This document shows, piece by piece, positions 8,174 to 28,843 of a stretch of 32,443 nt of DNA; the stretch's first letter is position 1; every line of letters starts with the position of its first letter. The notes beneath the pieces were generated by a model. The model worked only from the letters and a program-made list of their open reading frames with translations. It made no database searches and had not been told where the DNA came from. The stretch is from Candidatus Hebobacteria bacterium. Lineage in GTDB: Bacteria > Armatimonadota > Hebobacteria > Hebobacterales > Hebobacteraceae. The DNA lies in the NCBI GenBank assembly GCA_029821235.1, contig JALGTT010000001.1:1-32443 (forward strand). Reading direction: 5' to 3'. The position numbers were made by a program, and so were the translations under genes.

Positions 8174-8181
8174 ATCCTCGC

Positions 8182-8643: not shown

Positions 8644-8735
8644 TCATCCTTGCTTCCCGAATCTCGGCCGCCACGCCGGACGGACCGGCGGAGTTCGTTC
8701 CGGAGAGTCTGTGCGTCAGAGTTCAAACGGCCTGA

Positions 8736-8761: not shown

Positions 8762-8775
8762 CCGGAGTCGCTTCC

Positions 8776-9228: not shown

Positions 9229-9306
9229 CTTCTTTCACCTCCTTCCGGGTATTGTCTGGTGTTGACTACTGCCTCCGGCGGAGACTCCGCCGGCGATTGC
9301 CTCGCG

Positions 9307-10539: not shown

Positions 10540-10548
10540 GGCTTGCCC

Positions 10549-13247: not shown

Positions 13248-13277
13248 CCGCCGGCGCCGGGGGAAGCGGATGCCGCC

Positions 13278-14396
13278 ATGACCTCCAGAGAACGCGTGCT
13301 CGCCGCCATGCGCAGAGAACAGCCCGACCGCGTGCCCATCAACATCCGCGGGGTGAGGCTGTGGAACCCGGAATGGGTCGCCTCCCGCCATCCCTCCTAT
13401 CGCCCCGTCATGGAGGCGGTGAGGGAGCACTGCGACCTCATCCCCCACGCCTACGTGCCCGGCCTGGAACTCAACTTGCTCACCGAGGCGGAGCGCGAGA
13501 TCACCGAGCACCAGGTGAGCGACGCGGGCGAGTGGACCATCCACCGCACCATCCTCCACACCCCCAAGGGCGATCTGACCCAGGACTACTGGGAGTCGAA
13601 GCAAGGATACCTGCCGCTCATCAAGAAGTACTTCGTAGAGACGCCGGAGGATGTGGAGCGCGTGCTCTCGGTTCCCTATCGCCCGGTCTCGGTGGACCTG
13701 GAGCCCTACTTCCAGTTGCGGGAGGAGTGGCCGGACAACCTGGTGATGTGCGACTGTCCCCAGGCCCCCTCCTATGTGCACGAGTTGCTCGGCACGGAGA
13801 CCTTCGCCTACTGGTGGACCGAACACCGCGCCCTCCTGTTCGAAATGAGAGAAGTGTTCCAGGAGCGGGTGCTGGCCATCGTAGACGACATGCTCGCGCG
13901 GGGCGTGGGGCCGGTGCTGGCCACCCACGGCTCCGAGCAGATCGCCCCTCCCATGCACTCCCCCCAGACCCACCGGGAGTTCGTGCTCGCCGCCTTCCAG
14001 GACCTCTGCGACCGCGTGCACGCGAAGGGCTGTCTGCTCCACGTCCACTGCCACAACCGGCTCGACGCGCTGCTGGAGGATTTCGCGGAGGTGGGCTGGG
14101 ATGTGCTCCATCCGCTGGAGCCGCCCCCCATGGGCGACATCGTGCTCGCCGACGCCAAACGGCGAATCGGGGACCGCGTCTGCCTGGAGGGGAATATCCA
14201 GATCGGGGACCTCTACGGCACACCCACCGACACCGTGGTGGAGATAGTCGCCCAGGCGATGCGGGACGGCAGCCCGGGGGGAGGATTCATCCTCTGCCCC
14301 AGCGCCTCCCCCCACACCCCCACGCTGTCCGACCTCACCGTCAACAACTACCTGGCGATGATCGAGACCGCGGTCAAGATGCGGGACTACCAGTAG
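13278..14396 (+). CDS. uroporphyrinogen decarboxylase (URO-D) family protein
   Basis: 372 aa. The N-terminal RERVLAAMRREQPDRVP motif and overall TIM-barrel-like pattern are typical of URO-D/MtaA-like proteins. No other heme biosynthesis genes are adjacent. Confidence 0.75.
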   Translation: MTSRERVLAAMRREQPDRVPINIRGVRLWNPEWVASRHPSYRPVMEAVREHCDLIPHAYVPGLELNLLTEAEREITEHQVSDAGEWTIHRTILHTPKGDLTQDYWESKQGYLPLIKKYFVETPEDVERVLSVPYRPVSVDLEPYFQLREEWPDNLVMCDCPQAPSYVHELLGTETFAYWWTEHRALLFEMREVFQERVLAIVDDMLARGVGPVLATHGSEQIAPPMHSPQTHREFVLAAFQDLCDRVHAKGCLLHVHCHNRLDALLEDFAEVGWDVLHPLEPPPMGDIVLADAKRRIGDRVCLEGNIQIGDLYGTPTDTVVEIVAQAMRDGSPGGGFILCPSASPHTPTLSDLTVNNYLAMIETAVKMRDYQ

Positions 14397-14680: not shown

Positions 14681-14709
14681 TTGACATCACAAGTACTTCG
14701 TGATAATTT
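14681..14709 (+). promoter_or_regulatory. sigma70-type promoter of the hydrogenase operon
   Basis: TTGACA (14681-14686), a 17-nt spacer, then TAATTT (14704-14709) preceded by a TG (extended -10). It sits in a locally AT-rich patch about 245 nt upstream of the first gene. Confidence 0.55.
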
Positions 14710-14955
14710 TAACAAGCCGGGTAGTGATACTGTGAACAGCAGCACGAAGTCCGCATAGAGGAACACCAGTTGCGCCTGAGGCCCGGCCATTGGTGAAGAC
14801 GTGACAACGGTTGTGCTCCTCACATGTTGAGTCGGCGCATCCGCGCGGCAGTCTCGTGTCGGGGCGGGCGGAAACGACGCCTTGGCCGGCGGGGCACTGA
14901 GCGTGATGAGGGGTTGGCGTAGGCGATAGGCTAATGGAAGGGAGGATGCCGCGTC

Positions 14956-16899
14956 TTGGCTGAGATAGCTACCATCTGTCCCTACTGCGGTTGTGGTTGC
15001 GGCCTCTACCTGCACGTGGTCAACAGTCGCGTGGTCGGCACCGCGCCGATGCGAGTCCACCCCGTCTCCCAGGGGCGCCTCTGCCTCAAGGGGTGGCACG
15101 CACACGAGTTGTCCGACAGCCCCGACCGGCTCACCCGCCCGCTGGTGCGCCGCGGAGGCGAACTCCACGAGGCCTCCTGGGAGGAGGCGGTGAGCGAGGT
15201 GGTGCGCGGCCTGCAGGGGGTCGTGGAGACGGCGGGGCCGCAGGCGGTGGGAGTGCTGGGGAGCGCGCGCTGCTCGAACGAGGACAACTACCTGCTGGCG
15301 CGGTTCGCCCGCGCGGTGATCGGGACCTCAAACCTGGACTCCAGCCTGGCCGCCTATTCCCTGCCGGAGAGAATCGCGGAGGTCGGCGACGCGCAAATCG
15401 CCGATCTCGATGACAGCGACCTCATCATTCTGGTGGGAGTGGAGTTGGGGGAGGAGGAGCCCGCGGTGGGAGCGCACGTCTACCGCGCGCTCCAGCGGGG
15501 AACCAGGCTCATCACCGCCTCCGTGCGCCAACATTCCCTCGCCCACTTGGCGCAGCTCCATCTGCCCGTGCGGCCGGGCGGGGAAGCCGCGGCTCTGGGA
15601 AGCCTCCTCCACGAACTGGTGGTGGAGCGGAAACTCGCCGGCGACGCGGACGTCTCCGACCTCACCGCCGCCCTCGCCGACCTGAAGCCGGCCGGGTCGG
15701 AGGCGAAGACGGGCCTCGCCGCGGCCGCGGTGCGCGAGGCGGCCGACCTGTACCAGGCGGCCGAAAAAGTGGTATTGGTCTTCTCCAGCGCGCTGGCCTC
15801 CTCTCCGGAGGGCACGCGTGCGCTCTCGGTATTGCGCGCGTTCCGCGCGCTCGGCGCGGGCCCGCGGGTGGCCCTGCTGGGCCTGCTGGGGCGGTGCAAC
15901 CTCTACGGCTGCTGGGACATGGGGGTGAGGCACGGATTCCTGCCCGGCGCGCCCACCGGCGACATGGCTGCTGCAGGGCGTCTGAAGGGCATCTGGGGCG
16001 ATTTCAACAGTGAAGCGGGTCTTCCGGCCTGGGGCATGATGGACCAATGCCAGGCCCTGTACGTGATGGGGGACGACCCCAGCCGCAATCTCCCGGACTG
16101 GGCGGCGCGGCGGGAGAAGTTGGAGAGCATGAGGCTCCTGGTGGTGCAGGACCTGTTCATGAGCCCCCTTGCCGAACTCGCACACGTGGTGCTGCCCGCC
16201 GCCTCCTTCGCCGAGAAAGACGGCACCGTGACCAACCTGGAGGGCCGCGTGCAACTCGTGCGGGCCGCCGTGGCGTCCCCCGGCGAGGCAAGGGAGGACT
16301 GGCGCATCATCGCCGAACTGAGCCGGGCCTTCGGCAAGGCCCTCTCCTACCAAACCGCGGCCGACATATTCGCGGAGATCGCCCAGGCGGTTCCCGCCTA
16401 CGCGGGGCTCTCCCACGACGGGCTGAAGGCCCCGGGAGGCGGGCAGACATCCCGGCCCGGCGCGGCGAAGGCGGACGAAGGGGCGGCCGCCGCCCTGCGC
16501 GGCGCGGAGGGAGCGGTGGAGGCCGACGAGCAGTTCCCCCTGGTCCTGGTGGCCGACGCCACCCTGGGGCCATGGGCGGAAGAAGTCAGCGTCTCTCACA
16601 TGCCGGTGGCGGGGCGGGAGTTCACGGTGATGAGCAAGGACTACCCGGACGGGATGCTCATCCTGAACCCCGCGGACGGAAGAAAGAACGACCTGCGCCC
16701 GGGCCGCGCCGCGGAGGTCGCTTCTGCCAATGGGGCGGGGCGCATGCAGGTGAAATTCAGCGAGGACGTGCCGGAGGGAGTGGCGGTAACCCCCTACCAC
16801 CACGCCGCCCGGCACCGCATCATGAACATCGTCACCGAGCCGGACACGGGAAGGCCGCTCTTCGTTCCCACTCCGGTGTCGGTGGGAGTTGGCAAGTGA
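14956..16899 (+). CDS. formate dehydrogenase alpha-like molybdopterin oxidoreductase family protein lacking the Cys/Sec Mo ligand
   Basis: 647 aa. TTG start with GGAAGGGAGGA upstream. N-terminal [4Fe-4S] motif CPYCGCGC...CLKGW. Collinear with FdhF through RFARAVIGTSNLD, and has a C-terminal molybdopterin-dinucleotide-binding-type domain. The segment where FdhF has CARVUHGPSV reads SSLAAYSLPERI. Confidence 0.85.
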   Translation: MAEIATICPYCGCGCGLYLHVVNSRVVGTAPMRVHPVSQGRLCLKGWHAHELSDSPDRLTRPLVRRGGELHEASWEEAVSEVVRGLQGVVETAGPQAVGVLGSARCSNEDNYLLARFARAVIGTSNLDSSLAAYSLPERIAEVGDAQIADLDDSDLIILVGVELGEEEPAVGAHVYRALQRGTRLITASVRQHSLAHLAQLHLPVRPGGEAAALGSLLHELVVERKLAGDADVSDLTAALADLKPAGSEAKTGLAAAAVREAADLYQAAEKVVLVFSSALASSPEGTRALSVLRAFRALGAGPRVALLGLLGRCNLYGCWDMGVRHGFLPGAPTGDMAAAGRLKGIWGDFNSEAGLPAWGMMDQCQALYVMGDDPSRNLPDWAARREKLESMRLLVVQDLFMSPLAELAHVVLPAASFAEKDGTVTNLEGRVQLVRAAVASPGEAREDWRIIAELSRAFGKALSYQTAADIFAEIAQAVPAYAGLSHDGLKAPGGGQTSRPGAAKADEGAAAALRGAEGAVEADEQFPLVLVADATLGPWAEEVSVSHMPVAGREFTVMSKDYPDGMLILNPADGRKNDLRPGRAAEVASANGAGRMQVKFSEDVPEGVAVTPYHHAARHRIMNIVTEPDTGRPLFVPTPVSVGVGK

Positions 16900-16927
16900 A
16901 GGGGCCAAGGGGTAGGGAGGATTGCCG

Positions 16928-17959
16928 ATGAGTTCTTACTTTCTGCCGCGGGACCGAGTGGACGAATTGGTCGCCCGCCTCCTTCAGTCCGCGGAGGTGA
17001 TCGCGCCCAAGCGGGTGGAGACGGGAGACGTCTTCTACAGCCCCGTCTCTTCGCCGGCCGAGGTGGCTTGGGACTACAAGACCGCCGTGGAGCCGCTCAA
17101 GCGGTTCCTGTTCCCCCAGCGGGAGCCCATCCTTCAGTTCTCCAGGGAAGAAGGGAAGCTCAAGGTGGAGGCGGTGTTGGAGGGCAAGGAACGGATCTTC
17201 CTCGGCGTGAGAGGATGTGACGTCACCGGCGTCGCCGTGCTGGACGCCATGTTCGGGGGTGAGATCGAGGATCCGTACTACCTGGCCCAGCGGCAGCGGG
17301 CGACCTTCATCGCGCTCGCCTGCCTGGAGGCGGACGAACACTGCTTCTGCGTGTGCGGGGACGCGGGGCCCTTCCTCAAGAACGGCTACGACCAGCAGTG
17401 GATCCCCCTCGCGGAGGGCATGTTGATCGAGGTGGGCTCGGAGAAGGGACAGGCCCTCGCCGACGCGCACCAGGACCTGCTCTCCCCGGCCGAGCCGGAG
17501 CAGGTGGCCGAGAAACTGCAACTGGCGAAGAAGGCGGAGGAGAGTTTCGGCGAGTTCCGCTCCTACATCGCGGCGGCGATGCGCCGGCTCACCATGGCCG
17601 AGACGCCGGACGAGGTGTGGGAAAAACTCGCCGACAACTGCGTCGAGTGCGGCGGATGCACCTTCCTGTGTCCCACCTGCTCCTGCTTCACCGTCACCAG
17701 CCGCGAGGAGGGCGACGGCGGAATGTTAGAGCGCCAATGGGACGCCTGCCTGTATCCCTGCTACGCGCGGGAGGCGAGCGGGCACAATCCCCGGGGCGAG
17801 CACCCGCAGCGGCTGCGCGCCCGCTTCTTCCACAAGTTGAGCCACCAATGGGCGCAGCGCAACGGAAGGCATGCGTGTGTGGGATGCGGCCGGTGTGTCG
17901 TGGGGTGCCAGGCCTGGGCCCACATGTCGGCCGCCACTGAAGCCATTCGGCGAGGTTGA
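16928..17959 (+). CDS. multi-[4Fe-4S] protein, sulfhydrogenase beta (HydB) / AsrA-like
   Basis: 343 aa counted from the ATG at 16928, which has GGAGG 7 nt upstream. Two ferredoxin motifs (CVECGGCTFLCP and CVGCGRCVVGCQ) plus the extra Cys cluster CLEADEHCFCVCGD. The size matches HydB/AsrA. Confidence 0.78.
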   Translation: MSSYFLPRDRVDELVARLLQSAEVIAPKRVETGDVFYSPVSSPAEVAWDYKTAVEPLKRFLFPQREPILQFSREEGKLKVEAVLEGKERIFLGVRGCDVTGVAVLDAMFGGEIEDPYYLAQRQRATFIALACLEADEHCFCVCGDAGPFLKNGYDQQWIPLAEGMLIEVGSEKGQALADAHQDLLSPAEPEQVAEKLQLAKKAEESFGEFRSYIAAAMRRLTMAETPDEVWEKLADNCVECGGCTFLCPTCSCFTVTSREEGDGGMLERQWDACLYPCYAREASGHNPRGEHPQRLRARFFHKLSHQWAQRNGRHACVGCGRCVVGCQAWAHMSAATEAIRRG

Positions 17960-17964
17960 GCAAG

Positions 17965-18795
17965 ATGAGTAACCCCTATTTGCCGGACATAGCCACCATC
18001 CAGCGGGTCAAGCAGGAGACCTACGACACCACGACCTTCACCCTCAAGTTCGATGACCCGGGAGCCTGGGAGAAGTTCCGCTTCCAGCCCGGCCAGTTCG
18101 TCGAGATCTCCGTGTTCGGGGCCGGCGAGGCCCCCTTCTGCATCTCCTCCAGCGCCCACGGCCGCGAGGACTTCGACATCACCGTCCGCCGCCTGGGCCG
18201 GGTGACCCAGGCGCTGCACGACATGAGCGAGGGGGACCAGGTGGGCGTGCGGGGGCCGCTGGGCAACTCCTTCCCCCTCGACGAGGTGGCGGGAAAGCAC
18301 ATCCTGTTCGTGGGCGGCGGACTGGGGCTGGCGCCGCTCCGCCCGCAGATCCTGGACGTCTACCGGCAACGCGACAAGTTCCAGTCGGTAACCGTGCTCT
18401 ACGGGGCCCGCACCCCGGACGACCTGATCTACCGGGACGAACTGGAGCAGTGGCAGAACCTGGAGGGGATGCGCTGCCTGCTCACGGTGGACGTGGGCAA
18501 CGACCAATGGACCGGCAATGTGGGCGTGGTGGGCTCCCTCCTGTCGGAGGTCAAGTTCGACGTCAGCCAGGCCGTCGTCTTCGTGTGCGGCCCGCCGATC
18601 ATGATCAGATTCGTGGTCCGGGACCTGGTGGCGATGGGCTTCGGAGAGGACGAGATCATCAGCACCCTGGAGAGGCACATGCGCTGTGGAATCGGCAAGT
18701 GCAACCACTGCATCCACGGCGACAAGTACATCTGCCTGGATGGGCCGGTGTTCACTTTCCGCCAGATGAAGGCGATGATGGAGTTGGAGCCGTGA
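17965..18795 (+). CDS. FAD/NAD(P)H-binding [2Fe-2S] oxidoreductase, sulfhydrogenase gamma (HydG) / AsrB / PyrK-like
   Basis: 276 aa. Ferredoxin-reductase-type fold with GGGLGLAP nucleotide motif and C-terminal MRCGIGKCNHC...ICLDGPVF [2Fe-2S] motif. An alternative TTG start at 17956 overlaps the upstream stop. Confidence 0.85.
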   Translation: MSNPYLPDIATIQRVKQETYDTTTFTLKFDDPGAWEKFRFQPGQFVEISVFGAGEAPFCISSSAHGREDFDITVRRLGRVTQALHDMSEGDQVGVRGPLGNSFPLDEVAGKHILFVGGGLGLAPLRPQILDVYRQRDKFQSVTVLYGARTPDDLIYRDELEQWQNLEGMRCLLTVDVGNDQWTGNVGVVGSLLSEVKFDVSQAVVFVCGPPIMIRFVVRDLVAMGFGEDEIISTLERHMRCGIGKCNHCIHGDKYICLDGPVFTFRQMKAMMELEP

Positions 18796-19286
18796 TCTCC
18801 GGAGAAGCGGTGCCGGAGGCGCTCGCGGAGTGGCTGCGCCGGGATACGCTGATCCTGTGCGTGGGCAACCGCTGGCTCGGGGATGACGCGGCCGGGCCCC
18901 TGGTCGCCGACGGTGTGGCGGGCGCGGTGGACTGCGGGGACGCCCCCGAGCGGTTCCTCGACCTGGCCGGCTCCCCGGAGGTGGCGCAGGTGCTGGTGGT
19001 GGACGCGGTGGACATCGGGGGCGAGCCGGGCGAGATCGTGTTCTGCGGCCGCGAGGACCTGACCGAGCGGTTCGGCACCACCCATGATGCGGGGTTGGCG
19101 GTGCTCGCCCGCTTCCTGTCCGAGGCCCACGGCAAGGAAATGCGCGTGCTGGGGATCCAGCCCGCGCGCACGGGGGTGGGGACGGAGGTCAGCGAAGCGG
19201 TGCGCGGCGCAGTGGGCCGCGTCGCCGCCTGGCTGGCGCGGGCACAACAGCGAGAACAGGTGGAGACAGCATGGACCCAGTCGTGA
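18792..19286 (+). CDS. hycI: hydrogenase maturation endopeptidase (HycI/HyaD family)
   Basis: 164 aa. The GTG start overlaps the upstream TGA. Conserved metal-ligand contexts GNRWLGDDAAG, VVDAVDIGGEPG and GTTHDAG. Confidence 0.8.
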   Translation: MISGEAVPEALAEWLRRDTLILCVGNRWLGDDAAGPLVADGVAGAVDCGDAPERFLDLAGSPEVAQVLVVDAVDIGGEPGEIVFCGREDLTERFGTTHDAGLAVLARFLSEAHGKEMRVLGIQPARTGVGTEVSEAVRGAVGRVAAWLARAQQREQVETAWTQS

Positions 19287-20728
19287 TGACACTGCTGGTG
19301 GTTCCTTTTGCCGGCGCCCTGCTATGCGGCGTGCTGTCGCGAGGGGCGAAGGCGGCGGCCGCGCTGGTGGCCTTGGTGGTGATGGCGCTGGCGATCATCA
19401 CCGTCTGGCAGGCCTGGCCTCTGTTCCCCGATGGTTGGAACACCACCTTCGGCCAGCTTTCCTGGATGCCGGGGGGCCTGGGCTCCATCCAACTCTTCGG
19501 CGCCCTGGTGGACCCGCTCAGTTCCCTGATGCTGTTGCTGGTCACCGTGGTGGGGTTCGTGGTGGTGCTCTATTCCACCGGCTACCTCACCTCCCGCAAC
19601 GTCGAGCACGCCTACCGGGAGGGCGACAACCGCTACTACTTCTGGCTCCTCTTCTTCCTCGGCTCCATGGTGGGGGTGGCGGTGTCGCCCAATCTCCTCC
19701 AGATGTTCTTGTTCTGGGAAATGACCACCATCTGCTCCTGGGCCCTCATCTCCCATACCCACACCGGAGTCGCCCAGCGGGCCGGCTTCAAGGCCCTGGT
19801 CATCACCCACATCGGCGGGCTCGGCTTCCTGGTCGCCCTTGCCTTCCTGCTGGTGTTCGCGCAGAGTTTCGAGTTCACCGCCCTCGGCAAGCTGGGCGGG
19901 GGCATGAAGACCGCCGCCTTCCTCCTGTTGCTGGCGGCGGCCTGGGCGAAGTCCGCCCAGGTCCCCTTCCACACCTGGCTGCCCGACGCCATGGAAGCCC
20001 CCACCCCCATCAGCGCCTATCTCCACGCGGCGGCGATGGTGAAGGCGGGGGTGTTCCTGGTCGCCCGCCTCATCCAGGCGAGTTGGGAGATGCCCTCCCT
20101 GTTCGGCGCCGTGCTGCTGGCGGGGGCGCTCGTCACCATTCTGATGGCGGTGATCAACTACTTCCGCCAGGACGACCTCAAGCGGCTGCTCGCCTACTCG
20201 ACCATCGCCCACCTCGGCTACGTGATGGTGGGGTGTGCGCTCGGGGTATACGGCTCCTGGATGGGATTCCAGGGCGGGGTGCTCCACATCCTCTGCCACG
20301 GGGTGGCGAAGGGCACCCTCTTTCTGTGTGCGGGTGCGCTCGCCTACGGCGCGGGCACGCGGAGCATCAGCAAACTGCAGGGCATGGGGCGAAGGATGCC
20401 CCTGGTGGGGGCCGCCTTCATGGTGGGAGCCCTCGCCGTCACGGGCATCCCGCCTCTCGCCACCTTCTGGAGCAAACTCTACATCTTCGCCGGAGCGCTG
20501 GACGTGCGCGCGGGTGGAGTGCTCCTCGCCGTGCTGGCGGTGGAGAGCGTGGTCGCCTTCTCCTGGTTCATCTACGTGGGGCACCGCATCTTCCTGGGCG
20601 AGCCCTCCGAGGAGGCGGAGACCACCCCGCTACCGGCGGCGATGAGCGTCTCCCTGGTGATCGGAATGTTGCTGTGTGTGCTCGCCCCCGTCGTCGGCGT
20701 GCCGCTGGTGAGAATGATTCTGCCCTGA
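19271..20728 (+). CDS. hyfD: antiporter-like membrane subunit (NuoM/N, HyfD-like)
   Basis: 485 aa polytopic protein with the WLPDAMEAPTPISAYLHAAAMVKAGVFL proton-pump motif. Size is close to E. coli HyfD. Confidence 0.82.
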   Translation: MDPVVMTLLVVPFAGALLCGVLSRGAKAAAALVALVVMALAIITVWQAWPLFPDGWNTTFGQLSWMPGGLGSIQLFGALVDPLSSLMLLLVTVVGFVVVLYSTGYLTSRNVEHAYREGDNRYYFWLLFFLGSMVGVAVSPNLLQMFLFWEMTTICSWALISHTHTGVAQRAGFKALVITHIGGLGFLVALAFLLVFAQSFEFTALGKLGGGMKTAAFLLLLAAAWAKSAQVPFHTWLPDAMEAPTPISAYLHAAAMVKAGVFLVARLIQASWEMPSLFGAVLLAGALVTILMAVINYFRQDDLKRLLAYSTIAHLGYVMVGCALGVYGSWMGFQGGVLHILCHGVAKGTLFLCAGALAYGAGTRSISKLQGMGRRMPLVGAAFMVGALAVTGIPPLATFWSKLYIFAGALDVRAGGVLLAVLAVESVVAFSWFIYVGHRIFLGEPSEEAETTPLPAAMSVSLVIGMLLCVLAPVVGVPLVRMILP

Positions 20729-20758: not shown

Positions 20759-22849
20759 ATGATGAATGCAGCACAACTTGTACTGGCCGGTTGGGGACTG
20801 CTGATCTGTGGCGCCGCGGCATGCGCCGTCGTCTCCGCGCGGCGCAACCTGGTGGGGCCGCTGGCCTTCCTGTTCGTGGTCGGCTCCTCCGTGCTGGTGC
20901 TGCCGGCCGCCCTCTCCGTGCTGGTGCAGAACCGGGCCGCGGAGACGGGGGCTCTGCTCGCGCTCCCCGGCGTGCAGGCCTCCCTCGCCTTCCGGGTGGA
21001 TCAACTCAGCGCGCTCTTCCTGCTCATCACCGCGGTGATCGCCCCGCTGGCCACGCTCTACTCCATCCCCTACATGCTCAAATACCGGAACCAGGGCCTG
21101 CTGAGGTACTATCCGCTGTTCCTGCTCTTCTTCGCCGGCCTCATCGGCGTGGTGTGCGCGGCCGACTGGCTCTTCTTCCTGGTGTTCTGGGAGTTCATGA
21201 CCGTCTGCTCCTACTTCCTGGTGATCTTCACCAAGGAGGACCGGACGGCGGCGCGGGCGGGGCTCAAGTACATCGTGATGACCCACGGCGCCACCGCCCT
21301 CATGCTGATCGCGGCGATCGTGACCTGGAAGACGGCGCAGCCTCATTCCTTCAGCTTCGAAGCGGCCAAAGCGACCATGGCGCAGCTCGCGGCGACCAGG
21401 CCCGTCCTCCTGCATGTGCTGCTGGCGCTGTGGTTCGTGGGGTTCGCCACCAAGGCAGGGGTGCTCCCCCTCGGGGACTGGCTGCCCGACGCCTACCCGG
21501 CCGCCCCCAGCGGGGCCGCCGCGGTGTTCGGCGGCATGATGTCGAAGTTCGGCATCTACGGCCTGCTCCGGGTCTTCCTGGATATGGTTCCTGCCTGCGA
21601 GTTCTCCACCGTGTGGGGGATCGTGATTGCGGTGGCCGGGGCCAGCTCCATCTTCCTCGGCACCCTGAGCGCCCTCGCCCAGGACGATTCCAAGCGCCTC
21701 ATGTCCTTCCACGTGATCGGGCAGATCGGCTACATGCTGCTGGCCATCGGCGCCGGCATCTACCTGTTGCCGGTGAACGGCGCGCTGGCCGCGCTGGCGA
21801 TCATGGCGGGGGTGTTCCACCTGGTCAACAATGTGTGCTACAAGACCCTGTTGTTCTTCACCGCCGGCTCCCTCTCGTTCCGCGCCGGGGAAACCAACCT
21901 GAACCGGCTCTCGGGCATGTGGACGGTGATGCCCGTCACCGGGGTGGCCGCGCTGATCGGGTCCCTCTCCATCGCCGGCGTCCCCCCGTTCAACGGCTTC
22001 GCCAGCAAGTGGATGATCTACCACGCCACCATCCTGGGAGTGCCGGGGATGCCGTTGTTCCTCCTGCTGGGGATCCTCGCCCTCTTCGTATCCCTGGTCA
22101 CCCTCGCCTCCTTCCTCAAGTTCCTCGGCGGGGCCTTCATGGGCCCCACCGCGCTTCGCGAAGAGGAGGCGGAGAAGGGCGACGTGCCCTTCGCCATGCA
22201 GTTCCCCCAGATGTTCCTCGCCGCCCTCTGCATCGCCTTCGGGCTGGTGCCGATGCTCGCCCTGGCCGGCATCCATCGGGCGGTGGGCGCGGTGCTGCCG
22301 GTGCAGTCCGTCCCCTCGCTGTCCAGCCTGGTGGGCAACTCCTGGGCCGGGCTCCAGTTGAGCGCCTTCGGGGGGGAGGCGACTGGGGTCTGGTATCCGG
22401 TGGTGGTGCTAGGGGCGCTCGCCGTGGGAATGGCCTTTGCCTACTGGGTGTTCAGGCTGGGCGCCGCCCCGCGCCGGGCCGTGGACATGTGGCAGTGCGG
22501 CGCGTTGGTGGACGGCGCGCTGGCTCGCTACCTGGTGGTGGAGCCGAAACACGAGCCGGCCACCGCCCAGTTCGAGGCCCGCTTCCAGGCCCACGGACTC
22601 TACTCCTGTTTCAAGGTGGCCTTTCGCTCCGTCTACCCGTCGGTGCCGCTGCCCCATGCCGGCTATCCGACGCGGTTCATGAAGATATTCGATGTCGACG
22701 CCTGGCTCTTCGGTCCTCTCGTCCGGTTGGGGAACCGGCTGACCGGAGCCTTGAGCCGCACCCACTCCGGGGTCCCCCAGATGTATCTCATCTGGCAGCT
22801 GGTGGGCCTGGTGGCCGTGGTCGTCCTGTTGGCCGTGTGGGCCAATTAG
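20759..22849 (+). CDS. hyfB: antiporter-like membrane subunit (NuoL, HyfB/HycC-like)
   Basis: 696 aa. DWLPDAYPAAPSGAAAVFGGMMSKFGIYGLLRV motif, with the long C-terminal extension characteristic of HycC/HyfB. Confidence 0.85.
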   Translation: MMNAAQLVLAGWGLLICGAAACAVVSARRNLVGPLAFLFVVGSSVLVLPAALSVLVQNRAAETGALLALPGVQASLAFRVDQLSALFLLITAVIAPLATLYSIPYMLKYRNQGLLRYYPLFLLFFAGLIGVVCAADWLFFLVFWEFMTVCSYFLVIFTKEDRTAARAGLKYIVMTHGATALMLIAAIVTWKTAQPHSFSFEAAKATMAQLAATRPVLLHVLLALWFVGFATKAGVLPLGDWLPDAYPAAPSGAAAVFGGMMSKFGIYGLLRVFLDMVPACEFSTVWGIVIAVAGASSIFLGTLSALAQDDSKRLMSFHVIGQIGYMLLAIGAGIYLLPVNGALAALAIMAGVFHLVNNVCYKTLLFFTAGSLSFRAGETNLNRLSGMWTVMPVTGVAALIGSLSIAGVPPFNGFASKWMIYHATILGVPGMPLFLLLGILALFVSLVTLASFLKFLGGAFMGPTALREEEAEKGDVPFAMQFPQMFLAALCIAFGLVPMLALAGIHRAVGAVLPVQSVPSLSSLVGNSWAGLQLSAFGGEATGVWYPVVVLGALAVGMAFAYWVFRLGAAPRRAVDMWQCGALVDGALARYLVVEPKHEPATAQFEARFQAHGLYSCFKVAFRSVYPSVPLPHAGYPTRFMKIFDVDAWLFGPLVRLGNRLTGALSRTHSGVPQMYLIWQLVGLVAVVVLLAVWAN

Positions 22850-22872: not shown

Positions 22873-24573
22873 ATGACGAGTGTTGAGCTGATTGGCAAAC
22901 TGCGGGAGAAGTTCGGGGCCGCCATCCAAGACGTCTGCGAACTTACCCCCAGCAAGGTGCGAGTGGAGGTGGCGCCTGCCTCCGTGGTGCCGGTCTGCGA
23001 GGCGCTGTACCGGGACCTCGGCGCGCGCTTCCTCATCACCGCCGGCATCGATTCCCGCGCCGTGCGGGGCTGCTTCGACGTGGATCACATCTTCTCACTC
23101 GACCCCGACAAGATGTTCGTGATCGTGCGGGCGAGCGTCCCGCCGGAGAGGGCGACGTTGGACTCCATCACTCCGCGGGTTCCGGCCGCCTTCTGGGCGG
23201 AGAGGGAGCTCTACGACGTGCTCGGCGTGAAGGCCGAGGGGCATCCCGACCCGCGCCGCCTGATCATGCCGGACGACTGGCCGGAGGGGCTGTTCCCGCT
23301 CCGCAAGGATGTGAAGTACGGCGACTGGCCGGCGGTGGGAGGCGAAAACGCCGATGCCTCCTACCCGTGGAAACCCGCCCCGGAGGGCACCTCCACGGTG
23401 GTCGTCGGCCCCTTCTTCCCGGTGCTGGAGGAGCCCGCGCAACTCCGGCTCTATGTTGACGGCGAACGGGTGGTGGACTGCGACTACCGCGGCTTCTACA
23501 GCCACCGCGGGATCGAGAAGATGGGCGACAGCGCCCTCACCTACAACGAGATCCCCTTCGTCGCGGAGCGCATCTGCGGCATCTGCGGGTTCATCCACTC
23601 CTCCTGCTACTGCGAGACCGCGGAGGAGGCGATGGGGATCCGCGCCCCCCGCCGGGCCCGCTACATCCGCTCCCTGATGCTGGAGGTGGAGCGGATCCAT
23701 TCCCACCTGCTGTGGCTGGGGATCGCCGGCCACATCATCGGGTTCGACACCGTGCTGATGCAGGCGTGGAGAGTCCGCGAGCCCATCATGTGGCTGTGCG
23801 AGAAGATCACCGGGAACCGCAAGACCTATGGCATGAACCTGGTCGGCGGAGTGCGGAGAGACATCCCGAAGGAAGTCCAGCCCGAACTGCTGGAGGTGGT
23901 GGACAAGATCGAGAAGGAAACGGTGGCGATCGTCAACGCGGTGATCGGCGACACCGTCCTCAAGGCGAGGCTGAGCGGCGTCGGCATGCTCCCGGAGGAG
24001 AAGGCCAAGGAGCTGGCCGTGGTGGGGCCCACCGTCCGGGGGTCCAATCTCCCCCTCGACGCGCGGGTGGACCACCCCTATGCCGCCTACGACGAGATTC
24101 CCCCCAAGGTCATCACCCACCCGGACTGCGACAACTGGGCGCGGGTGGTGGTGAGGCTGGAGGAGACCATCGAGTCCATCCGGTGGATCAGGGAGGGCCT
24201 CAAGCAGATGCCGGACGGACCGATCATGGCCTCCGACATTCCCGAGGACATCCCGCCCGAGCAGTGGGGCGTGTTCGTCGTGGAGGCCCCCAGGGGCGAG
24301 GCGATCCACTATGTGGTAACCGGCGGCGACAACCGCCCCGCGCGCTGGCGGGTGCGGGCGCCCACCTATCAGAACCTTCAGGCGCTGCCCTACCTGATCG
24401 AGCAGGAAACCATCGCCGACGTGCCCATCACGCTGGGCAGCATGGACCCGTGTTTCTCCTGCACCGAGCGCACCGAGATCATCAACGTGCGCTCCGGGGA
24501 AAGCAAAGTGCTGGACCAGCAGGAGTTACTCCGGCTCTCCCGCGAAGCCACCGAGCGGCTGCGGGGCCGGTGA
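22873..24573 (+). CDS. hyfG: group 4 [NiFe]-hydrogenase large subunit, NuoC-NuoD fusion (HycE/HyfG-like)
   Basis: 566 aa. N-terminal 30-kDa (NuoC) domain. N-terminal Ni-Fe ligand motif ERICGICGFIHS and C-terminal motif DPCFSCTER, followed by a 33-aa tail of the kind removed by HycI. Confidence 0.93.
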   Translation: MTSVELIGKLREKFGAAIQDVCELTPSKVRVEVAPASVVPVCEALYRDLGARFLITAGIDSRAVRGCFDVDHIFSLDPDKMFVIVRASVPPERATLDSITPRVPAAFWAERELYDVLGVKAEGHPDPRRLIMPDDWPEGLFPLRKDVKYGDWPAVGGENADASYPWKPAPEGTSTVVVGPFFPVLEEPAQLRLYVDGERVVDCDYRGFYSHRGIEKMGDSALTYNEIPFVAERICGICGFIHSSCYCETAEEAMGIRAPRRARYIRSLMLEVERIHSHLLWLGIAGHIIGFDTVLMQAWRVREPIMWLCEKITGNRKTYGMNLVGGVRRDIPKEVQPELLEVVDKIEKETVAIVNAVIGDTVLKARLSGVGMLPEEKAKELAVVGPTVRGSNLPLDARVDHPYAAYDEIPPKVITHPDCDNWARVVVRLEETIESIRWIREGLKQMPDGPIMASDIPEDIPPEQWGVFVVEAPRGEAIHYVVTGGDNRPARWRVRAPTYQNLQALPYLIEQETIADVPITLGSMDPCFSCTERTEIINVRSGESKVLDQQELLRLSREATERLRGR

Positions 24574-24586
24574 GGAGGCAGGGACG

Positions 24587-25496
24587 GTGAACGTAACCGC
24601 GCAAATGTTGTCAGGGATACCCGGGGCGATACTCGCCGTGGTCGTGTTCGTCGGGCTCGCGCCCCTGGCCGAGGGGCTGCTGAGGAAGCTCAAGGCGATC
24701 GTCCACTCCCGCCAGGGCCCGCCCATCATCCAGCCCTACCTCGATCTCGCGAAACTGCTGATCAAAGAGGACCTCGCCCCCTGCACCAACTGGATCTGGC
24801 GGATGGCCCCCGCCCTCTGCCTGGGCGGCACCATCGTGCTCGCCCTCTTCACTCCGCTCGGCGTACGGCCCGCCTTCGGCTTCAGCGGCGATATCCTGGT
24901 CTTCATCTACCTGGCGGCCATCCCGTCCATCGCCATCATCCTCGGCGCCTTCGCCTCCGGCAACCCCTACGCCTATGTGGGCGGGAGCCGCGAGATGATG
25001 GTGATGCTCAGCGTGGAGCCGGTGATGTCCATCGCCCTGCTGGTGGCCGCCATCAAGGCCCAGTCCCTCACCTTTGCCGGCATCCTGGAGAGATCCGCCG
25101 TCGAGCCCTCCATCTCCATGGGGGTCGCCGGGCTCGCCTTCCTGCTCGCCCTGCAGGCCCAGGTCGGCAAACTCCCCTTCGACATGCCGGAGGCCGAGCA
25201 GGAGATCATGGAGGGCCCCTTCATCGAGCGCAGCGGACCGGGGATGGCGCTCTTCCGGTGGGCGATGCACGCGCGGCTCATGATCTTCACCGCCCTCCTG
25301 GTCAGCATCTTCATCCCCTGGCCGCACGTCGCCAACGCGGGCCTCTCCATGCTGCTCACCCTGGCCAAGATGGCGGTGGTGCTCGCCTTGGTCGGGGTGG
25401 TGGACGTGGTCAACCCGCGGCTCCGCATCGACCAATCCATGGCCTACTACGCCCGCATCGGTGGGCGCGTTGATCTTCGCCATTGTGGGCGCCTGA
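24587..25496 (+). CDS. hyfC: NuoH-like membrane subunit (HycD/HyfC-like), apparent 1-nt frameshift near the 3' end
   Basis: GTG start with GAGGAGG 6 nt upstream. HycD-like sequence runs through NPRLRIDQSMAYYARIG (about nt 25460). Read literally, the frame then continues as Arg-rich junk to 25825, across the next gene. The +1 frame from 25461 instead gives VGALIFAIVGA-stop at 25494-25496. The end coordinate assumes that shift. Confidence 0.78.
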
Positions 25497-25511: not shown

Positions 25512-25979
25512 ATGATCATCAGCAAACTGAAAGAGGCGATTATCTGCTTCAAGGCGGGCAGGGTCACGCTGCCCTATCCCTTCAAACCGCACGACCCGGC
25601 GGAGAACTTCCGCGGCCGCGTGACCGTGGATGCCGAGAAGTGCATCGGGTGCGCCGGGTGTGCGGAGGTGTGCCCCTCCCGCTGCATCGTGGTCACCGAT
25701 CCGTCTCCCGACAAGCGGGTCCTCGAGTTCTTCCTCGAGCGCTGCACCTACTGCGCGCGCTGCGCAGAGGTCTGCCCCGAGGACGCCGTCACCGCCACCC
25801 AGGAATTCGAGACCGCCACCAATGACACGCAGGACATGCACATCAAGGTGGAGGTCTTCATGAGCACCTGCCGCCGGTGCGGACGCTGCTACGAGCCGCC
25901 CACCCCGCTGGACCGGCCCATGGAGACGGGAATGCGGGAGGCGACGGACGGAAACGGAAGCGGAAACGGGGAAGGCTGA
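25512..25979 (+). CDS. hyfH: 2x[4Fe-4S] ferredoxin subunit (NuoI, HycF/HyfH-like)
   Basis: 155 aa. Motifs CIGCAGCAEVCP and CTYCARCAEVCP, plus a downstream CRRCGRC as in HycF. Confidence 0.88.
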   Translation: MIISKLKEAIICFKAGRVTLPYPFKPHDPAENFRGRVTVDAEKCIGCAGCAEVCPSRCIVVTDPSPDKRVLEFFLERCTYCARCAEVCPEDAVTATQEFETATNDTQDMHIKVEVFMSTCRRCGRCYEPPTPLDRPMETGMREATDGNGSGNGEG

Positions 25980-26641
25980 TGCTGAACGCGAAACTGATCG
26001 AAACCCTCAGTCTCATCATGATCATCACCTCGCTGGTGGCGGTGGAGACCCACAACCTCAAGCGGGCCGCGGCCGCCTACTGCGTGCAGGCCCTGCTGGT
26101 GTGCGGCCTCATCCTCGCCTTTGCCGCCGCCAACCCGGCCCTCTACACGTGGGCCGCGGTGGCCCTGGTGACCAAGGCGATCGCCACCCCGTGGCTGCTG
26201 CTCCACTATGTGGGCAAGACGGGGGTGAGAGAGGCGAAAGCGATCATCGGATTCGGACCCTCCGTGCTGATCGCCTCCCTCCTGCTGATCACCTCCTACA
26301 CCCTCACCCATCGCTACGTGCACTTCCTGGCCCCCACCGCAGAGGCCGCGCAGGGGGTCTTCCGGACCAATCTCGCGGTCAGCATGACGGTGTTCGCGCT
26401 GGGGCTGTACGCCATTCTCTCCCGGCGGGACGCCATCAAGACCGTGATCGGATTGTGTTTGCTGGAAAATGCCATCCACCTCAGCCTGGTCAGCCTCGCC
26501 CCCCACATGCGGGAGACCGCGTTGGTGGGCATCGCCACCGAGGTGGTCATCACCGTTGCCTTGCTGCTCTACGTGATCGCCGGGATCAAGGAGCAGGTGG
26601 GAACCACGGACACCTTCGAACTCTCGGAGTTACACTGGTAG
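25979..26641 (+). CDS. hyfE: HyfE-like small membrane subunit
   Basis: 220 aa polytopic protein. Its ATG overlaps the upstream TGA (TGATG). Size and position match hydrogenase-4 subunit E. The longer ORF starting at 25877 overlaps hyfH and was rejected. Confidence 0.72.
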   Translation: MLNAKLIETLSLIMIITSLVAVETHNLKRAAAAYCVQALLVCGLILAFAAANPALYTWAAVALVTKAIATPWLLLHYVGKTGVREAKAIIGFGPSVLIASLLLITSYTLTHRYVHFLAPTAEAAQGVFRTNLAVSMTVFALGLYAILSRRDAIKTVIGLCLLENAIHLSLVSLAPHMRETALVGIATEVVITVALLLYVIAGIKEQVGTTDTFELSELHW

Positions 26642-26656: not shown

Positions 26657-28270
26657 ATGCCCTTGCACAATGAAGTCGCTTCAGTCTTGCCGCTCGCGCT
26701 GTGTCTCATTCCCGCGGCGCTGGCGCTCGTCACCTATCCTCTGACCCGCGCCGCGCGGGCCCTGGGGCCTGCCCTCAACCTGCTGGGCAGCGCGGTCGCC
26801 ACCGCGCTCGCCGCGGCATTAATGGCCCACACCATGAGGGGCGACGTGCTGGTGGCCCTGGGCCGGGAATTCCGCGCCGATGCGCTCTCCGCCGTCCTGG
26901 TCCTCATCATCAGTTTCATCAGCCTCGCCGCCTCCATCTACGCCATCTCCTACATGCGCTTGGAGCCGCTGCTGGGCCGGGTGGCGCACGAGGAGGGAGA
27001 GGAGCGGGCCGAGCGTCGCCTCGCCACCTTCTACGCCCTCTGGCAGGCCTTCCTCGCCACCATGCTGTGGGCGTGCCTCACCAACAACATCATCGTCCTC
27101 TACGTCTCCGTCGAGGCGAGCACCATCGCCTCCGGCCTGCTGGTCGCCTTCTACTGGGACCGCCGGGCGCTGGAGGCGGCCTACAAATACCTGATGCTGC
27201 TCACCGTGGGCATCGCCTTCGCACTCCTCGGGTGCGTGTTGCTGTACGCCTCCGCCGCACCTCACCTGGCCGACAAGACCGGGCCGGCCGCCATGCTCAT
27301 CAGCGACCTGCCGGCGGCCGCAGCCGCCATCCCCCGCAGCATGGCGTTGCTCATCATGGCCTGCTTCATCGTCGGCTTCGGCACCAAGGCGGGGATCGCC
27401 CCCTTCCACCCCTGGCTGCCGGATGCCCACGCCGAGGCCCCCGGTCCGGTCAGCGCCCTCCTCTCCGGGGTGATGATCAAGATGGCGATCTACGCCCTCG
27501 TCCGCACCCTCGGCGTCTTCTTCCCGATCGCCGCCTACCACCCGGTGTCTGTGTTCTTCATCGGGCTGGCGGCCTTCACCATGCTCCTGGGGGGAATAAT
27601 GTGCCTCGCCCAGGACGACCTGAAGCGGATGCTCGCCTATTCTTCGGTCAGCCAGATGGGCTACATCGCCGCCGGCCTGGGCATCGTCGGGCTGGGCTTC
27701 GGCCGCGAACTGGGATACCTGGCGGGCTACGGCGCCATCTTCCACATTCTCAACCACGCCCTCTCCAAGGCGCTTCTCTTCCTGGTGGTCGGCGCCGTGA
27801 TCTACGTCACCGCCGGCCGTCGCATCAGCCAACTGCACGGGCTCGGGCGGCGGATGCCCGCCACCGCCATCTGCTTCTTCATCGCCGCCCTCGCCATCTC
27901 CGGCGTGCCGCCCTTCAACGGCTTCTGGAGCAAACTCACCATCTACTTCGCGGCGGCCGAGGCGCGGCTGTGGTGGGCGTTCGGCATCGCCCTCGCCACC
28001 AGCCTGCTCACCCTCATCGCCTTCGTGCGCGCCGGCTTCCGGGTCTTCTGGAGCGAGGGCGATTACCCGGAGCCGGAGCCCGCCCGCGAGAACGGGGAGC
28101 AACAGGCCCTCTCCGATGCGGCGAAGGACCCGCTGGAGGGAGATGCGCCGGTGGCTATGCTGATACCGATGGTGGTCCTCGCGGTGCTCTGCGTGGTGAT
28201 CGGGGTGTTCCCCAACCTCGCCTACCCGATCATCGATCCGGCCGCGCGGGCTCTCGCCGCTATCTTTTGA
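26657..28270 (+). CDS. hyfF: antiporter-like membrane subunit (NuoM/N, HyfF-like)
   Basis: 537 aa. PWLPDAHAEAPGPVSALLSGVMIKMAIYALVR motif, with GAGGAGG upstream of the ATG. Confidence 0.85.
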   Translation: MPLHNEVASVLPLALCLIPAALALVTYPLTRAARALGPALNLLGSAVATALAAALMAHTMRGDVLVALGREFRADALSAVLVLIISFISLAASIYAISYMRLEPLLGRVAHEEGEERAERRLATFYALWQAFLATMLWACLTNNIIVLYVSVEASTIASGLLVAFYWDRRALEAAYKYLMLLTVGIAFALLGCVLLYASAAPHLADKTGPAAMLISDLPAAAAAIPRSMALLIMACFIVGFGTKAGIAPFHPWLPDAHAEAPGPVSALLSGVMIKMAIYALVRTLGVFFPIAAYHPVSVFFIGLAAFTMLLGGIMCLAQDDLKRMLAYSSVSQMGYIAAGLGIVGLGFGRELGYLAGYGAIFHILNHALSKALLFLVVGAVIYVTAGRRISQLHGLGRRMPATAICFFIAALAISGVPPFNGFWSKLTIYFAAAEARLWWAFGIALATSLLTLIAFVRAGFRVFWSEGDYPEPEPARENGEQQALSDAAKDPLEGDAPVAMLIPMVVLAVLCVVIGVFPNLAYPIIDPAARALAAIF

Positions 28271-28315
28271 GTGAGTCGTTAGGCGGGCCCCTCCCGCCGC
28301 CAAGTGAGGAAGACG

Positions 28316-28843
28316 ATGGCAATAAGTGATGCGCTGAAGAAACTCTTTCCGAAATCCCTCTGGGTCTACCACGTCAACGTGGGCGCCTGCAACGGGTGCG
28401 ATATCGAGGTGATCAACGTCCTCACCCCGTACTACGACGCGGAGCGCTTCGGCATCAAGTTGGTGAGCTCCCCCCGCCACGCGGACGTCCTGCTCGTGTG
28501 CGGCCCCGTGACCCGCCAGGTGCTGCCCTCCGTCAAGCGCGTGTACGAGGCCACGCCCAGCCCGAAACTGGTCTTCGCCATCGGCTCCTGCGCCTGCGGC
28601 GGAGGCATCTGGCACGATTCCTACAACATCCTCGGCGGGGCCGACAAGGCGCTGCCGGTGGACTACTACATCCCCGGCTGCCCGCCCCGGCCGGAGGCGA
28701 TCCTCTACGGGGTGGCCGTCGCCCTGGGGCTCGCCCCCAAGAAGGCCGCGCCGGTCCACACCAAGCAGAAGTTCCTCGAGATGCTGGAGAAGGGCGAGGT
28801 CCCCGGGCCCCAGCTCGTCGCTCCGCCCGGGGATTCGGAGTAA
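28316..28843 (+). CDS. hyfI: group 4 [NiFe]-hydrogenase small subunit (NuoB, HycG/HyfI-like)
   Basis: 175 aa counted from the ATG at 28316, which has GAGGA 5 nt upstream. The proximal-cluster cysteines are in GACNGCD, GSCACGGG and IPGCPPRPE. Confidence 0.92.
   Translation: MAISDALKKLFPKSLWVYHVNVGACNGCDIEVINVLTPYYDAERFGIKLVSSPRHADVLLVCGPVTRQVLPSVKRVYEATPSPKLVFAIGSCACGGGIWHDSYNILGGADKALPVDYYIPGCPPRPEAILYGVAVALGLAPKKAAPVHTKQKFLEMLEKGEVPGPQLVAPPGDSE

Follow-up and report, generated by a model that had tools for sequence, protein, structure and literature searches.

A formate dehydrogenase-like subunit without the catalytic triad opens a putative NAD(P)H-linked hydrogenase operon in Candidatus Hebobacteria

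The FdhA-like gene and its former active site

The window analysed here, a stretch of 32,443 nucleotides from a Candidatus Hebobacteria bacterium (Armatimonadota; assembly GCA_029821235.1, contig JALGTT010000001.1, positions 1 to 32,443 of the forward strand), contains a 12-gene operon, all on the + strand, whose first gene encodes an FdhA-like protein of the MopB fold (14956..16899, +; hereafter the query). The protein, which has 647 amino acids and Fe4S4, Molybdopterin and degenerate Molydop_binding domains, is described here as a pseudo-formate-dehydrogenase. It lacks the catalytic residues and most of the motifs conserved in formate dehydrogenases (FDHs), retains the iron-sulfur site and the fold, is under purifying selection and is tightly linked to the hydrogenase genes of the operon. 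The open reading frame (ORF) starts with a TTG codon preceded by a GGAGG Shine-Dalgarno sequence 10 nt upstream, and the resulting N-terminus, MAEIAT, is the same as in homologues.

The degenerate former active-site loop spans N126-G161 (15331..15438, +, corresponding to codons 126-161) and reads NLDSSLAAYSLPERIAEVGDAQIADLDDSDLIILVG. A preliminary description of the window had claimed that this segment contains neither Cys nor His and that the ORF has no in-frame TGA. Translation confirms the first claim (0 Cys, 0 His), and the ORF is indeed uninterrupted, which excludes a UGA-encoded selenocysteine (Sec). The strings that the same description had quoted for the query and for E. coli FdhF were all correct when checked against FdhF translated from NC_000913, our reference for this protein. 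In comparison with solved FDHs, phmmer places a 6-residue gap exactly at the FDH sequence HCARLxHS (HCARL[C/U]HS is missing), whereas MAFFT aligns Y134/S135 with FdhF columns 140/141 (Sec140/His141) and places a deletion of 6-8 residues directly after them, removing the 'G.GAMTNS' loop of FDHs. Both programs thus agree with the earlier statement that the catalytic Sec140/His141 pair is missing; Y134 and S135 stand in its place, and the loop that follows is shortened. The secondary structure of an AlphaFold2 (AF2) model (strand 127-129, loop, helix 137-142) is consistent with the MAFFT register, given that FdhF has, as we take it, the same strand-loop-helix topology in the region of columns 140/141. 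Segment 126-161 also holds four Ser and six Asp, and therefore cannot by itself exclude a Ser or Asp ligand; the argument for exclusion comes from the loss of the cofactor-binding motifs.

The third catalytic residue is missing as well. The suggestion that Arg333 of FdhF may be retained in the string LLGRCNLYG (15883..15909, +) did not survive alignment: FdhF R333 corresponds to L311 of the query, while the nearby R313 falls in the Gln335 column. Leu occupies the R333 column in 24 of the 32 members of the query clade (P0001-P0032, 45-82% identity). With the Sec/Cys-His pair replaced and R333 changed to L311, the catalytic triad Sec/Cys-His-Arg is wholly absent from the query.

Loss of cofactor motifs

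The comparison with orthologues suggested in the preliminary description showed that the query shares its condition with many relatives: the best 120 database homologues split into 41 with Cys-His in the ligand columns and 79 without. Alignment columns that are at least 93% conserved in true FDHs number 213; of these FDH-conserved columns, 99 are retained in the query and 53 in E. coli NuoG. The clade and NuoG have for the most part lost the same columns (Fisher p = 2e-7). In the query, as in its clade, most of the GxN, DPR, PGTD, MGITQH, GENP, TGR and K-x-C motifs have given way to other residues. Clade-wide replacements in the first half of the protein affect GxN176 (to D/E), D202-P203-R (to S-V/T-R), PGTD223 (to E) and M297-GITQH302 (to S..L.LS); they continue with N330 (to L), R333 (to L) and E403-N404 (to D-D), and extend to the C-terminal motifs T579-G580-R581 (to A-D-P), H587 (to D), K679 (to A) and C681 (to T). 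The acidic replacements in former cofactor motifs would be expected to repel the phosphates of a cofactor.

Domain scores follow the same pattern. The Molybdopterin domain of Pfam scores 170.5 bits in the query, 262-302 bits in three true FDHs and 64 bits in E. coli NuoG; for Molydop_binding, the query (34.6 bits) stands close to NuoG (31 bits) and far below the three FDHs (113-124 bits), while for Molybdop_Fe4S4 it is on a par with the FDHs (57.6 versus 57-67 bits; NuoG, 50 bits). The query does not reach the cutoff of TIGR01591, the Fdh-alpha family (352.3 versus 666.25 bits).

Column entropy locates the change precisely. Residues 127-150, the most conserved stretch of true FDHs (0.28-0.43 bits), are the most variable stretch of the query clade (up to 2.5 bits), and the next-largest entropy difference between the two groups lies in the MGITQH region. 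The ligand column of the clade holds Q, Y or H, and the loop is deleted in seven members; an Armatimonadota sub-clade mostly has Glu or Asp in this column. The preliminary description had named, as evidence that would speak against its view, a conserved Cys, Ser or Asp at the molybdenum site together with intact residues for binding the pyranopterin guanine dinucleotide (PGD) cofactor. The alignment contains no ligand candidate conserved across the Cys-less, hydrogenase-linked family, with no family-wide Cys, Ser or Asp in the ligand column or its vicinity, and the PGD motifs are disrupted.

Retained iron-sulfur site, fold and selection

The query retains the [4Fe-4S] site of the MopB family, formed by C8, C11, C15 and C43 and accompanied by Lys45 at the position of FdhF Lys44 (14977..15093, +; motifs CPYCGCGCG and RLCLKG). 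The four cysteines are invariant in 23 clade members, and 96-98% of the remaining Cys-less homologues have them too; K45 reaches at least 90% conservation. Across the same 23 clade members, which share 48-82% identity, over 100 columns show no variation. The AF2 model confidently predicts a four-domain MopB fold (predicted local distance difference test, pLDDT, 93.4; predicted template modelling score, pTM, 0.94), and Foldseek aligns it to FdhF and other FDHs with template modelling (TM) scores of 0.85-0.89, compared with 0.69 for mycobacterial NuoG.

Relative to an 82%-identical orthologue (locus L167), the ratio of nonsynonymous to synonymous substitution rates (dN/dS) is 0.22 for the MopB gene, 0.17 for the HydB-like gene, 0.09 for the HydG-like gene and 0.13 for the HycE-like gene. 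A decaying pseudogene was considered and rejected on the grounds of the dN/dS value of 0.22 and of an ORF that is intact in every relative. The sequencing runs that carry this sequence consist of DNA only and come from hydrothermal vent and sediment metagenomes.

The hydrogenase operon

The genes that follow the query gene encode two redox subunits, a maturation protease and eight subunits of a membrane-bound hydrogenase, all on the + strand. The second gene encodes a HydB/AsrA-like Fe-S beta subunit (16922..17959) with 17 Cys and two CxxCxxCxxxC motifs (Pfam Fer4_22, 2.8e-25), and the third a HydG/AsrB-like gamma subunit (17956..18795) with the Pfam domains FAD_binding_6, NAD_binding_1 and DHODB_Fe-S_bind ([2Fe-2S]). 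Their best matches in the PDB are the beta and gamma subunits of Pyrococcus furiosus sulfhydrogenase I (9nez_B, 1e-47, and 9nez_C, 4.7e-56, respectively). Neither protein reaches the NCBIfam equivalog cutoffs for HydB/HydG or AsrA/AsrB; thus, they are members of these families and not orthologues of either pair. Next comes a HycI-type hydrogenase maturation endopeptidase (18792..19286; Pfam HycI, TIGR00072), whose start is likely a GTG that overlaps the stop codon of the HydG-like gene.

Three antiporter-type membrane subunits are encoded: HyfD-like (19271..20728; NF005097, hydrogenase 4 subunit D, 522.7 bits against a cutoff of 430), HyfB-like (20759..22849; NF005086, 7.8e-108) and HyfF-like (26657..28270; NF005044, 1.5e-88). 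The [NiFe] hydrogenase large subunit (22873..24573) is of the HycE/HyfG type, a NuoC-NuoD fusion with a C-terminal extension. Its Ni-Fe cysteine motifs are intact (RICGICGFIH and DPCFSCTER), and its best PDB match is E. coli HycE (7z0s_E, 2.2e-133). The remaining genes encode a HyfC/HycD (NuoH-like) membrane subunit (24587..25496; Pfam NADHdh, 2.6e-56), a HyfH/HycF (NuoI-like) 2x[4Fe-4S] ferredoxin subunit with two CxxCxxCxxxCP motifs (25512..25979), a HyfE-like membrane subunit with an ATG start (25979..26641; NF008556, 8.4e-33) and a HyfI/HycG (NuoB-like) hydrogenase small subunit with one [4Fe-4S] cluster (28304..28843; Pfam Oxidored_q6, 3.9e-32). The syntenic hyfH gene also carries Fer4 domains in the related loci L003, L004 and L167. 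The reading frame of hyfC continues to 25825, about 310 nt into hyfH, with a low-complexity tail, while the C-terminus of its homologues, VGALIFAIVGA*, is found in another frame and ends at 25494-25496. The last 15 or so codons of hyfC thus appear to be affected by a frameshift or a small deletion close to 25450, which could be genuine or an artefact of the assembly.

Judging by their motifs, the partner subunits look functional: the Ni-Fe motifs, the HycI protease and the cofactor motifs of the beta and gamma subunits are all present. A six-frame scan of the whole window for CxxCxxCxxxC found only the HydB-like and HyfH proteins, and no HycB/HyfA-type ferredoxin. Among the features of group 4a hydrogenases, the operon therefore has the HycE-type large subunit and HycI but lacks the HycB/HyfA connector and a competent FDH partner.

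Distribution among relatives

The gene order MopB, HydB-like, HydG-like, HycI and Hyf genes occurs in about 12 non-redundant loci among the matches listed (the window, L167, L002, L003, L007, L004/L008, L088, L005, L009, L168, L169 and L170; hycI is missing between the gamma and hydrogenase genes of L170). These include a Candidatus Hebobacteria metagenome-assembled genome (MAG; L007) and an Armatimonadota MAG (L009), and the shared order reaches relatives down to 33% identity. All relatives with this order lack both Cys/Sec-His and an Arg at column 333. Scans of genome and metagenome contigs gave, among the matches listed, mostly true FDHs.

The ligand call, made from the alignment, was tallied against gene context for non-redundant loci with beta-gamma genes and at least 6 kb of downstream sequence. 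Hyf genes are present in 7/7 Cys-less loci and absent from 28/29 Cys/Sec-His loci (Fisher p = 1e-6). Ligand loss thus tracks the hydrogenase-operon context almost perfectly, but the sample is phylogenetically structured and the result is an association, not seven independent events. In a neighbour-joining tree (no support values), the Cys-less, Hyf-linked proteins form one long-branched clade. Their closest Cys/Sec relatives among the matches listed belong to FdhA-beta-gamma triads without hydrogenase (Nitrospirota, Thermodesulfovibrionia, Syntrophaceae and others).

The sole exception in the tally, L129, encodes gamma, MopB (region 557-2600), beta, HyfD, HyfB and HycE. Its MopB protein keeps Cys-His and all cofactor motifs; column 333 holds Ile, and the string 'DPH' a His. 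The protein may represent an intermediate stage or, alternatively, a molybdenum enzyme that acts on a different substrate and is attached to this type of hydrogenase. Protein P0071 (L005) has Thr-His in the ligand columns and still keeps DPR and PGTD. L129 and P0071 look like stages of one degeneration series. A second candidate exception, L106, was rejected, since the hydrogenase near its true FDH, at a distance of some 6 kb, is unrelated (24% identity), has its own HydB/HydG-like genes and is probably a group 3b sulfhydrogenase.

Some relatives depart from the arrangement in the window. In the sub-clade of P0071 and P0083, the large subunit is split into NuoC-like and short (about 322 aa) NuoD-like genes (L005, 14075-14755 and 18800-20482; L168, 18415-20097), and L005 has an extra gene with faint multihaem cytochrome matches between hydG and hycI. 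In L169 (1-9560; the locus of the relative P0057), the operon lies directly downstream of an acetyl-CoA synthase/CO dehydrogenase cluster with genes for CdhC/ACS, CdhD, RACo, a pterin-binding methyltransferase and CooC-like ATPases, a neighbourhood that hints at a link to the Wood-Ljungdahl pathway.

True Cys/Sec-FdhA genes directly before, or flanked by, HydB/HydG-like beta-gamma genes and without a hydrogenase were seen in about 50 non-redundant loci among the matches listed (L010-L082, L090-L166), with hosts that include Nitrospirota, Thermodesulfovibrionia, Syntrophaceae and Chloroflexota. These triads seem to encode an NAD(P)-linked formate dehydrogenase of three subunits that is widespread and, apparently, uncharacterised. 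A further Cys-less MopB domain ('NGSRLYGAA') occurs in L077 (9320-14835), a Bacillota MAG, within an 888-aa NuoG-like fusion (2Fe-2S, NADH-G, Fer4_Nqo3) followed by NuoE-like, NuoF-like and methylene-tetrahydrofolate-reductase C-terminal-domain genes; it is a separate family of dead FDH domains.

Comparison with known systems

NuoG of complex I is the textbook case of a MopB protein without its cofactor. Like the query, the C-terminal domain of NuoG/Nqo3/NDUFS1 has the MopB/FDH fold without the Mo-bisPGD site and keeps the MopB [4Fe-4S] position (N7). Both proteins belong to a membrane machine of the complex I superfamily beside an NAD(P)H-oxidising flavoprotein module, and they resemble each other in the FDH-conserved columns that they have lost and in their Molydop_binding scores (31 and 34.6 bits). 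NuoG alone has N-terminal [2Fe-2S] and [FeFe]-hydrogenase-like Fe-S domains with on-path clusters, and its partners are NuoE/F (FMN), whereas the query has a single MopB cluster and HydB/HydG-type partners (FAD). Accordingly, Pfam detects only the three MopB domains in the query and none of Fer2_4, NADH-G_4Fe-4S_3 and Fer4_Nqo3, which are seen in E. coli NuoG, and TIGR01973 scores 163 against a cutoff of 470. The query is also more FDH-like than NuoG in structure (TM 0.88 to FdhF versus 0.69 to NuoG), and the terminal site of its complex is a [NiFe] centre instead of a quinone pocket. The likeness to NuoG appears to be a parallel that arose independently.

E. coli FdhF (FDH-H) shares with the query its domain order, a similar length, the Fe4S4 motif and identical cysteine numbering, and the E. 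coli Hyc/Hyf operons share the HycE-type hydrogenase, the HycI protease and the antiporter-like HyfB/D/F subunits. The query differs from FdhF in lacking Sec140, His141, Arg333 and the cofactor motifs, and its operon differs from that of E. coli formate hydrogenlyase (FHL) in having no HycB/HyfA connector and in encoding a beta-gamma NAD(P)H module that FHL lacks. In the E. coli complex, HycB and HycF form the docking site for FdhF, whose cluster can be superposed on N7 of Nqo3 (PMC9474812). The second and third genes of the operon are clear homologues of the sulfhydrogenase I beta-gamma subunits (HydB/HydG) of P. furiosus and of AsrA/AsrB, including the FAD, NAD(P) and Fe-S motifs. Those subunits work with a group 3b hydrogenase, which is soluble, or with a sulfite reductase, whereas their counterparts in the window are connected to a group 4 hydrogenase of the membrane by way of a MopB-fold protein. 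The soluble FdhA-beta-gamma triads have the same succession of MopB, HydB-like and HydG-like genes but keep HCARL[C/U]HS and all cofactor motifs and have no adjacent hydrogenase; by these features they are presumably true NAD(P)-linked FDHs.

OmeA of Dehalococcoides mccartyi has Ser at the Sec/Cys position. Like the query, it is an FDH homologue without FDH function in a hydrogenase-containing complex (Hup-OmeAB-Rdh); unlike the query, it is periplasmic, related to FdnG/FdoG, partnered with an uptake hydrogenase and reductive dehalogenases, and described as a molybdoenzyme (PMC6258894). A similar case, likened by description only, may be the group 4 hydrogenase cluster of Saganbacteria RX5A, called 'enigmatic' by Matheus Carnevali et al. 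2019 (PMC6349859). This cluster is described as having a molybdopterin oxidoreductase that is an FDH by hidden Markov models and unclassified by phylogeny, together with asrA/asrB-like genes and a membrane-bound hydrogenase; in contrast to the operon in the window, a cooF-like gene is also present (PMC6349859). The passages on this cluster leave its function open and make no mention of a missing molybdenum ligand (PMC6349859). Full-text searches of the literature turned up no specific earlier account of an FDH-like subunit that lacks the Cys and belongs to a membrane hydrogenase linked to NAD(P)H. Cofactor-less MopB subunits are known, and the query would be a further variant of them, in an FHL-type hydrogenase operon with a beta-gamma module.

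Proposed role of the MopB-like subunit

The combined evidence argues, with a probability that we put at roughly 0.6, that the query is a cofactor-less pseudo-FDH that acts as an Fe-S relay or scaffold and connects an NAD(P)H module with an ion-translocating hydrogenase of the FHL type. The preliminary description had left two options, a NuoG-like cofactor-less scaffold or Fe-S relay and a subunit with an unconventional ligand or substrate; the former is favoured here and the latter less so. The query would be the first subunit and structural adaptor of a 12-gene complex, in which the sulfhydrogenase-type beta-gamma module (FAD, [2Fe-2S], [4Fe-4S]) would exchange electrons with NAD(P)(H). We infer a path from NAD(P)H through FAD and [2Fe-2S] in the gamma subunit, [4Fe-4S] in the beta subunit, possibly the MopB cluster, HyfH and HyfI to the [NiFe] centre; the MopB cluster would either conduct electrons on this path or be a relic lying beside it, in the manner of N7 of NuoG. 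The three antiporter-like membrane subunits would couple the reaction to ion translocation. The net reaction would be NAD(P)H + H+ <-> NAD(P)+ + H2, with its direction set by H2 pressure and membrane potential.

Several points weigh against this proposal. E0' is about -320 mV for NAD(P)H and -414 mV for H+/H2, and H2 evolution would therefore need the membrane potential or very low H2, while the direction of H2 oxidation could conserve a small amount of energy. NAD(P)H is a weak source of electrons for a group 4 hydrogenase that reduces protons and pumps ions, and the complex may need a membrane potential, work in the direction of H2 oxidation or take its electrons from a different donor. L129, which keeps Cys-His and the cofactor motifs, indicates that this type of complex does not require a dead MopB subunit. 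The role of the GxN, DPR, PGTD, MGITQH, GENP, TGR and K-x-C motifs as PGD contacts is our assumption from general family knowledge, and the query, with its 99 conserved columns against 53, has more FDH-like sequence than NuoG. Finally, the former active site has acquired conserved residues of its own. R313, D373-D374, D534 and E543 are invariant in the clade and stand in former active-site or cofactor-motif columns; C319, near the former active-site loop, is conserved in 27/32 members; and the column after the ligand column holds Cys in 15/32 and Ser in 10/32 close relatives. Where the clade has R313, C319, D373-D374, D534 and E543 (15892-15912, 16072-16077, 16555-16557 and 16582-16584, +), true FDHs hold Q335, A341, E403-N404, G580 and G589. 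Such clade-specific residues suggest that a new constraint acts where the cofactor pocket used to be, and they could have a new role.

A different explanation is that Mo/W-bisPGD or a single pterin is still bound through an unconventional ligand (Ser135, Ser130, Tyr134, Cys319 or an Asp/Glu) and that a reaction other than formate oxidation supplies the hydrogenase, NAD(P)+ or both with electrons. Such an enzyme would fit the complete MopB fold of four domains, predicted with high confidence, as would the Cys or Ser beside the ligand column in 25/32 close relatives, the Glu/Asp that mostly fills this column in the Armatimonadota sub-clade, C319 in 27/32 members and the new invariant residues in former cofactor-motif columns. 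We consider it improbable, since no candidate is conserved across the Cys-less, Hyf-linked family and seven close relatives have no loop at all. Moreover, DPR, PGTD, MGITQH, TGR and K-x-C are all replaced, several of them by acidic residues, Molydop_binding falls to the level of NuoG, and no other part of the protein varies as much as the loop. Far less probable still is the reading implied by automatic annotation, in which the query is a functional formate dehydrogenase and the operon encodes a conventional formate hydrogenlyase. FDH is the best Pfam/NCBIfam match, the hydrogenase is of the HycE type, and homologues are named 'formate dehydrogenase alpha subunit' in their sources; against this, the Cys/Sec, His141 and Arg333 are missing, the ORF has no TGA, TIGR01591 gives 352 bits for a cutoff of 666, and the cofactor motifs are lost.

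A cofactor-less protein might instead be a purely structural relic that only folds or stabilises the beta subunit, with a [4Fe-4S] cluster that lies off the path like N7 and electrons that pass directly from gamma through beta to HyfH. The nearest Cys/Sec relatives are FdhA-beta-gamma triads without hydrogenase (at least 28 loci), which implies that contact between MopB and beta is ancestral; the A1 cluster of FdhF superposes on the off-path N7 of Nqo3 (PMC9474812); and the dN/dS of MopB (0.22) exceeds those of HycE (0.13) and HydG (0.09). However, the four cluster cysteines are invariant and Lys45 nearly so, which indicates that the cluster itself is under selection, although N7 is also conserved in many NuoG proteins. 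In addition, a HycB-type connector was not found in the window, and something must therefore bridge beta to HyfH. On balance, a purely structural role seems unlikely.

The favoured reading of the query as a cofactor-less connector can be placed in an evolutionary setting. A soluble NAD(P)-linked FdhA-beta-gamma enzyme would have joined an FHL/Hyf-type hydrogenase and then lost its molybdenum site, and the MopB subunit would have persisted by holding the beta-gamma module and supplying a [4Fe-4S] cluster. More broadly, and only tentatively, the operon family can be viewed as a second independent solution to the task of complex I: an FHL-type hydrogenase would have captured a soluble FdhA-beta-gamma enzyme, silenced its molybdenum site and kept the dead FDH as an adaptor, giving a reversible, energy-coupled NAD(P)H:H+ oxidoreductase of which L129 and P0071 would be living graded intermediates.

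Implications

To our knowledge, no NAD(P)H-linked, ion-translocating group 4 hydrogenase has been characterised. Such a complex, if real, would directly link the pyridine-nucleotide pool, H2 and the membrane potential. The structural work on FHL discusses whether FdhF and NuoG became part of the complex I superfamily independently of each other (PMC9474812), and the operon family would offer an extant example of an FDH converted into a connector without cofactor, with intermediates open to comparison.

Pipelines and sources label the query and its relatives as 'formate dehydrogenase alpha' or 'YjgC', and the automatic 'formate dehydrogenase' labels for the query and its relatives are probably wrong. 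Next to a HycE-type hydrogenase, such a label reads as formate hydrogenlyase or H2-dependent CO2 reduction, and models of Armatimonadota with hydrogenases of this kind treat them as acetogens in which FDH is paired with the hydrogenase (PMC10290634). If the subunit is dead, inferences of formate hydrogenlyase, CO2 reduction and acetogenesis need revising.

Surroundings of the operon

A search against Rfam gave no match, and a consensus scan of the 560-bp region upstream of the operon called no promoter or terminator. Upstream of the operon lies an AT-rich patch (14681-14712) with TTGACA, then the near-palindrome TCACAAGTACTTCGTGA, then TAATTT; from its sequence, it may be a promoter with a regulator site. 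Genes of the GlpM and URO-D families (12894-14396, +) stand directly upstream of the operon, the same pair is found upstream in L002, and a second gene of the URO-D family (uroporphyrinogen decarboxylase/methylcobamide methyltransferase) lies downstream (30902-32056, -). In L004, an MTTB methyltransferase gene is located upstream of the operon. Further upstream in the window, a cluster resembling type IV pilus or type II secretion (T2SS) systems (2860-12252, -) is syntenic with L002 and encodes a PilB-like ATPase, a PilC-like platform protein, several prepilins, a PilM-PilN fusion and a T2SSM-like protein. Genes for a mechanosensitive channel and a C-N hydrolase occupy the 5' end of the window.

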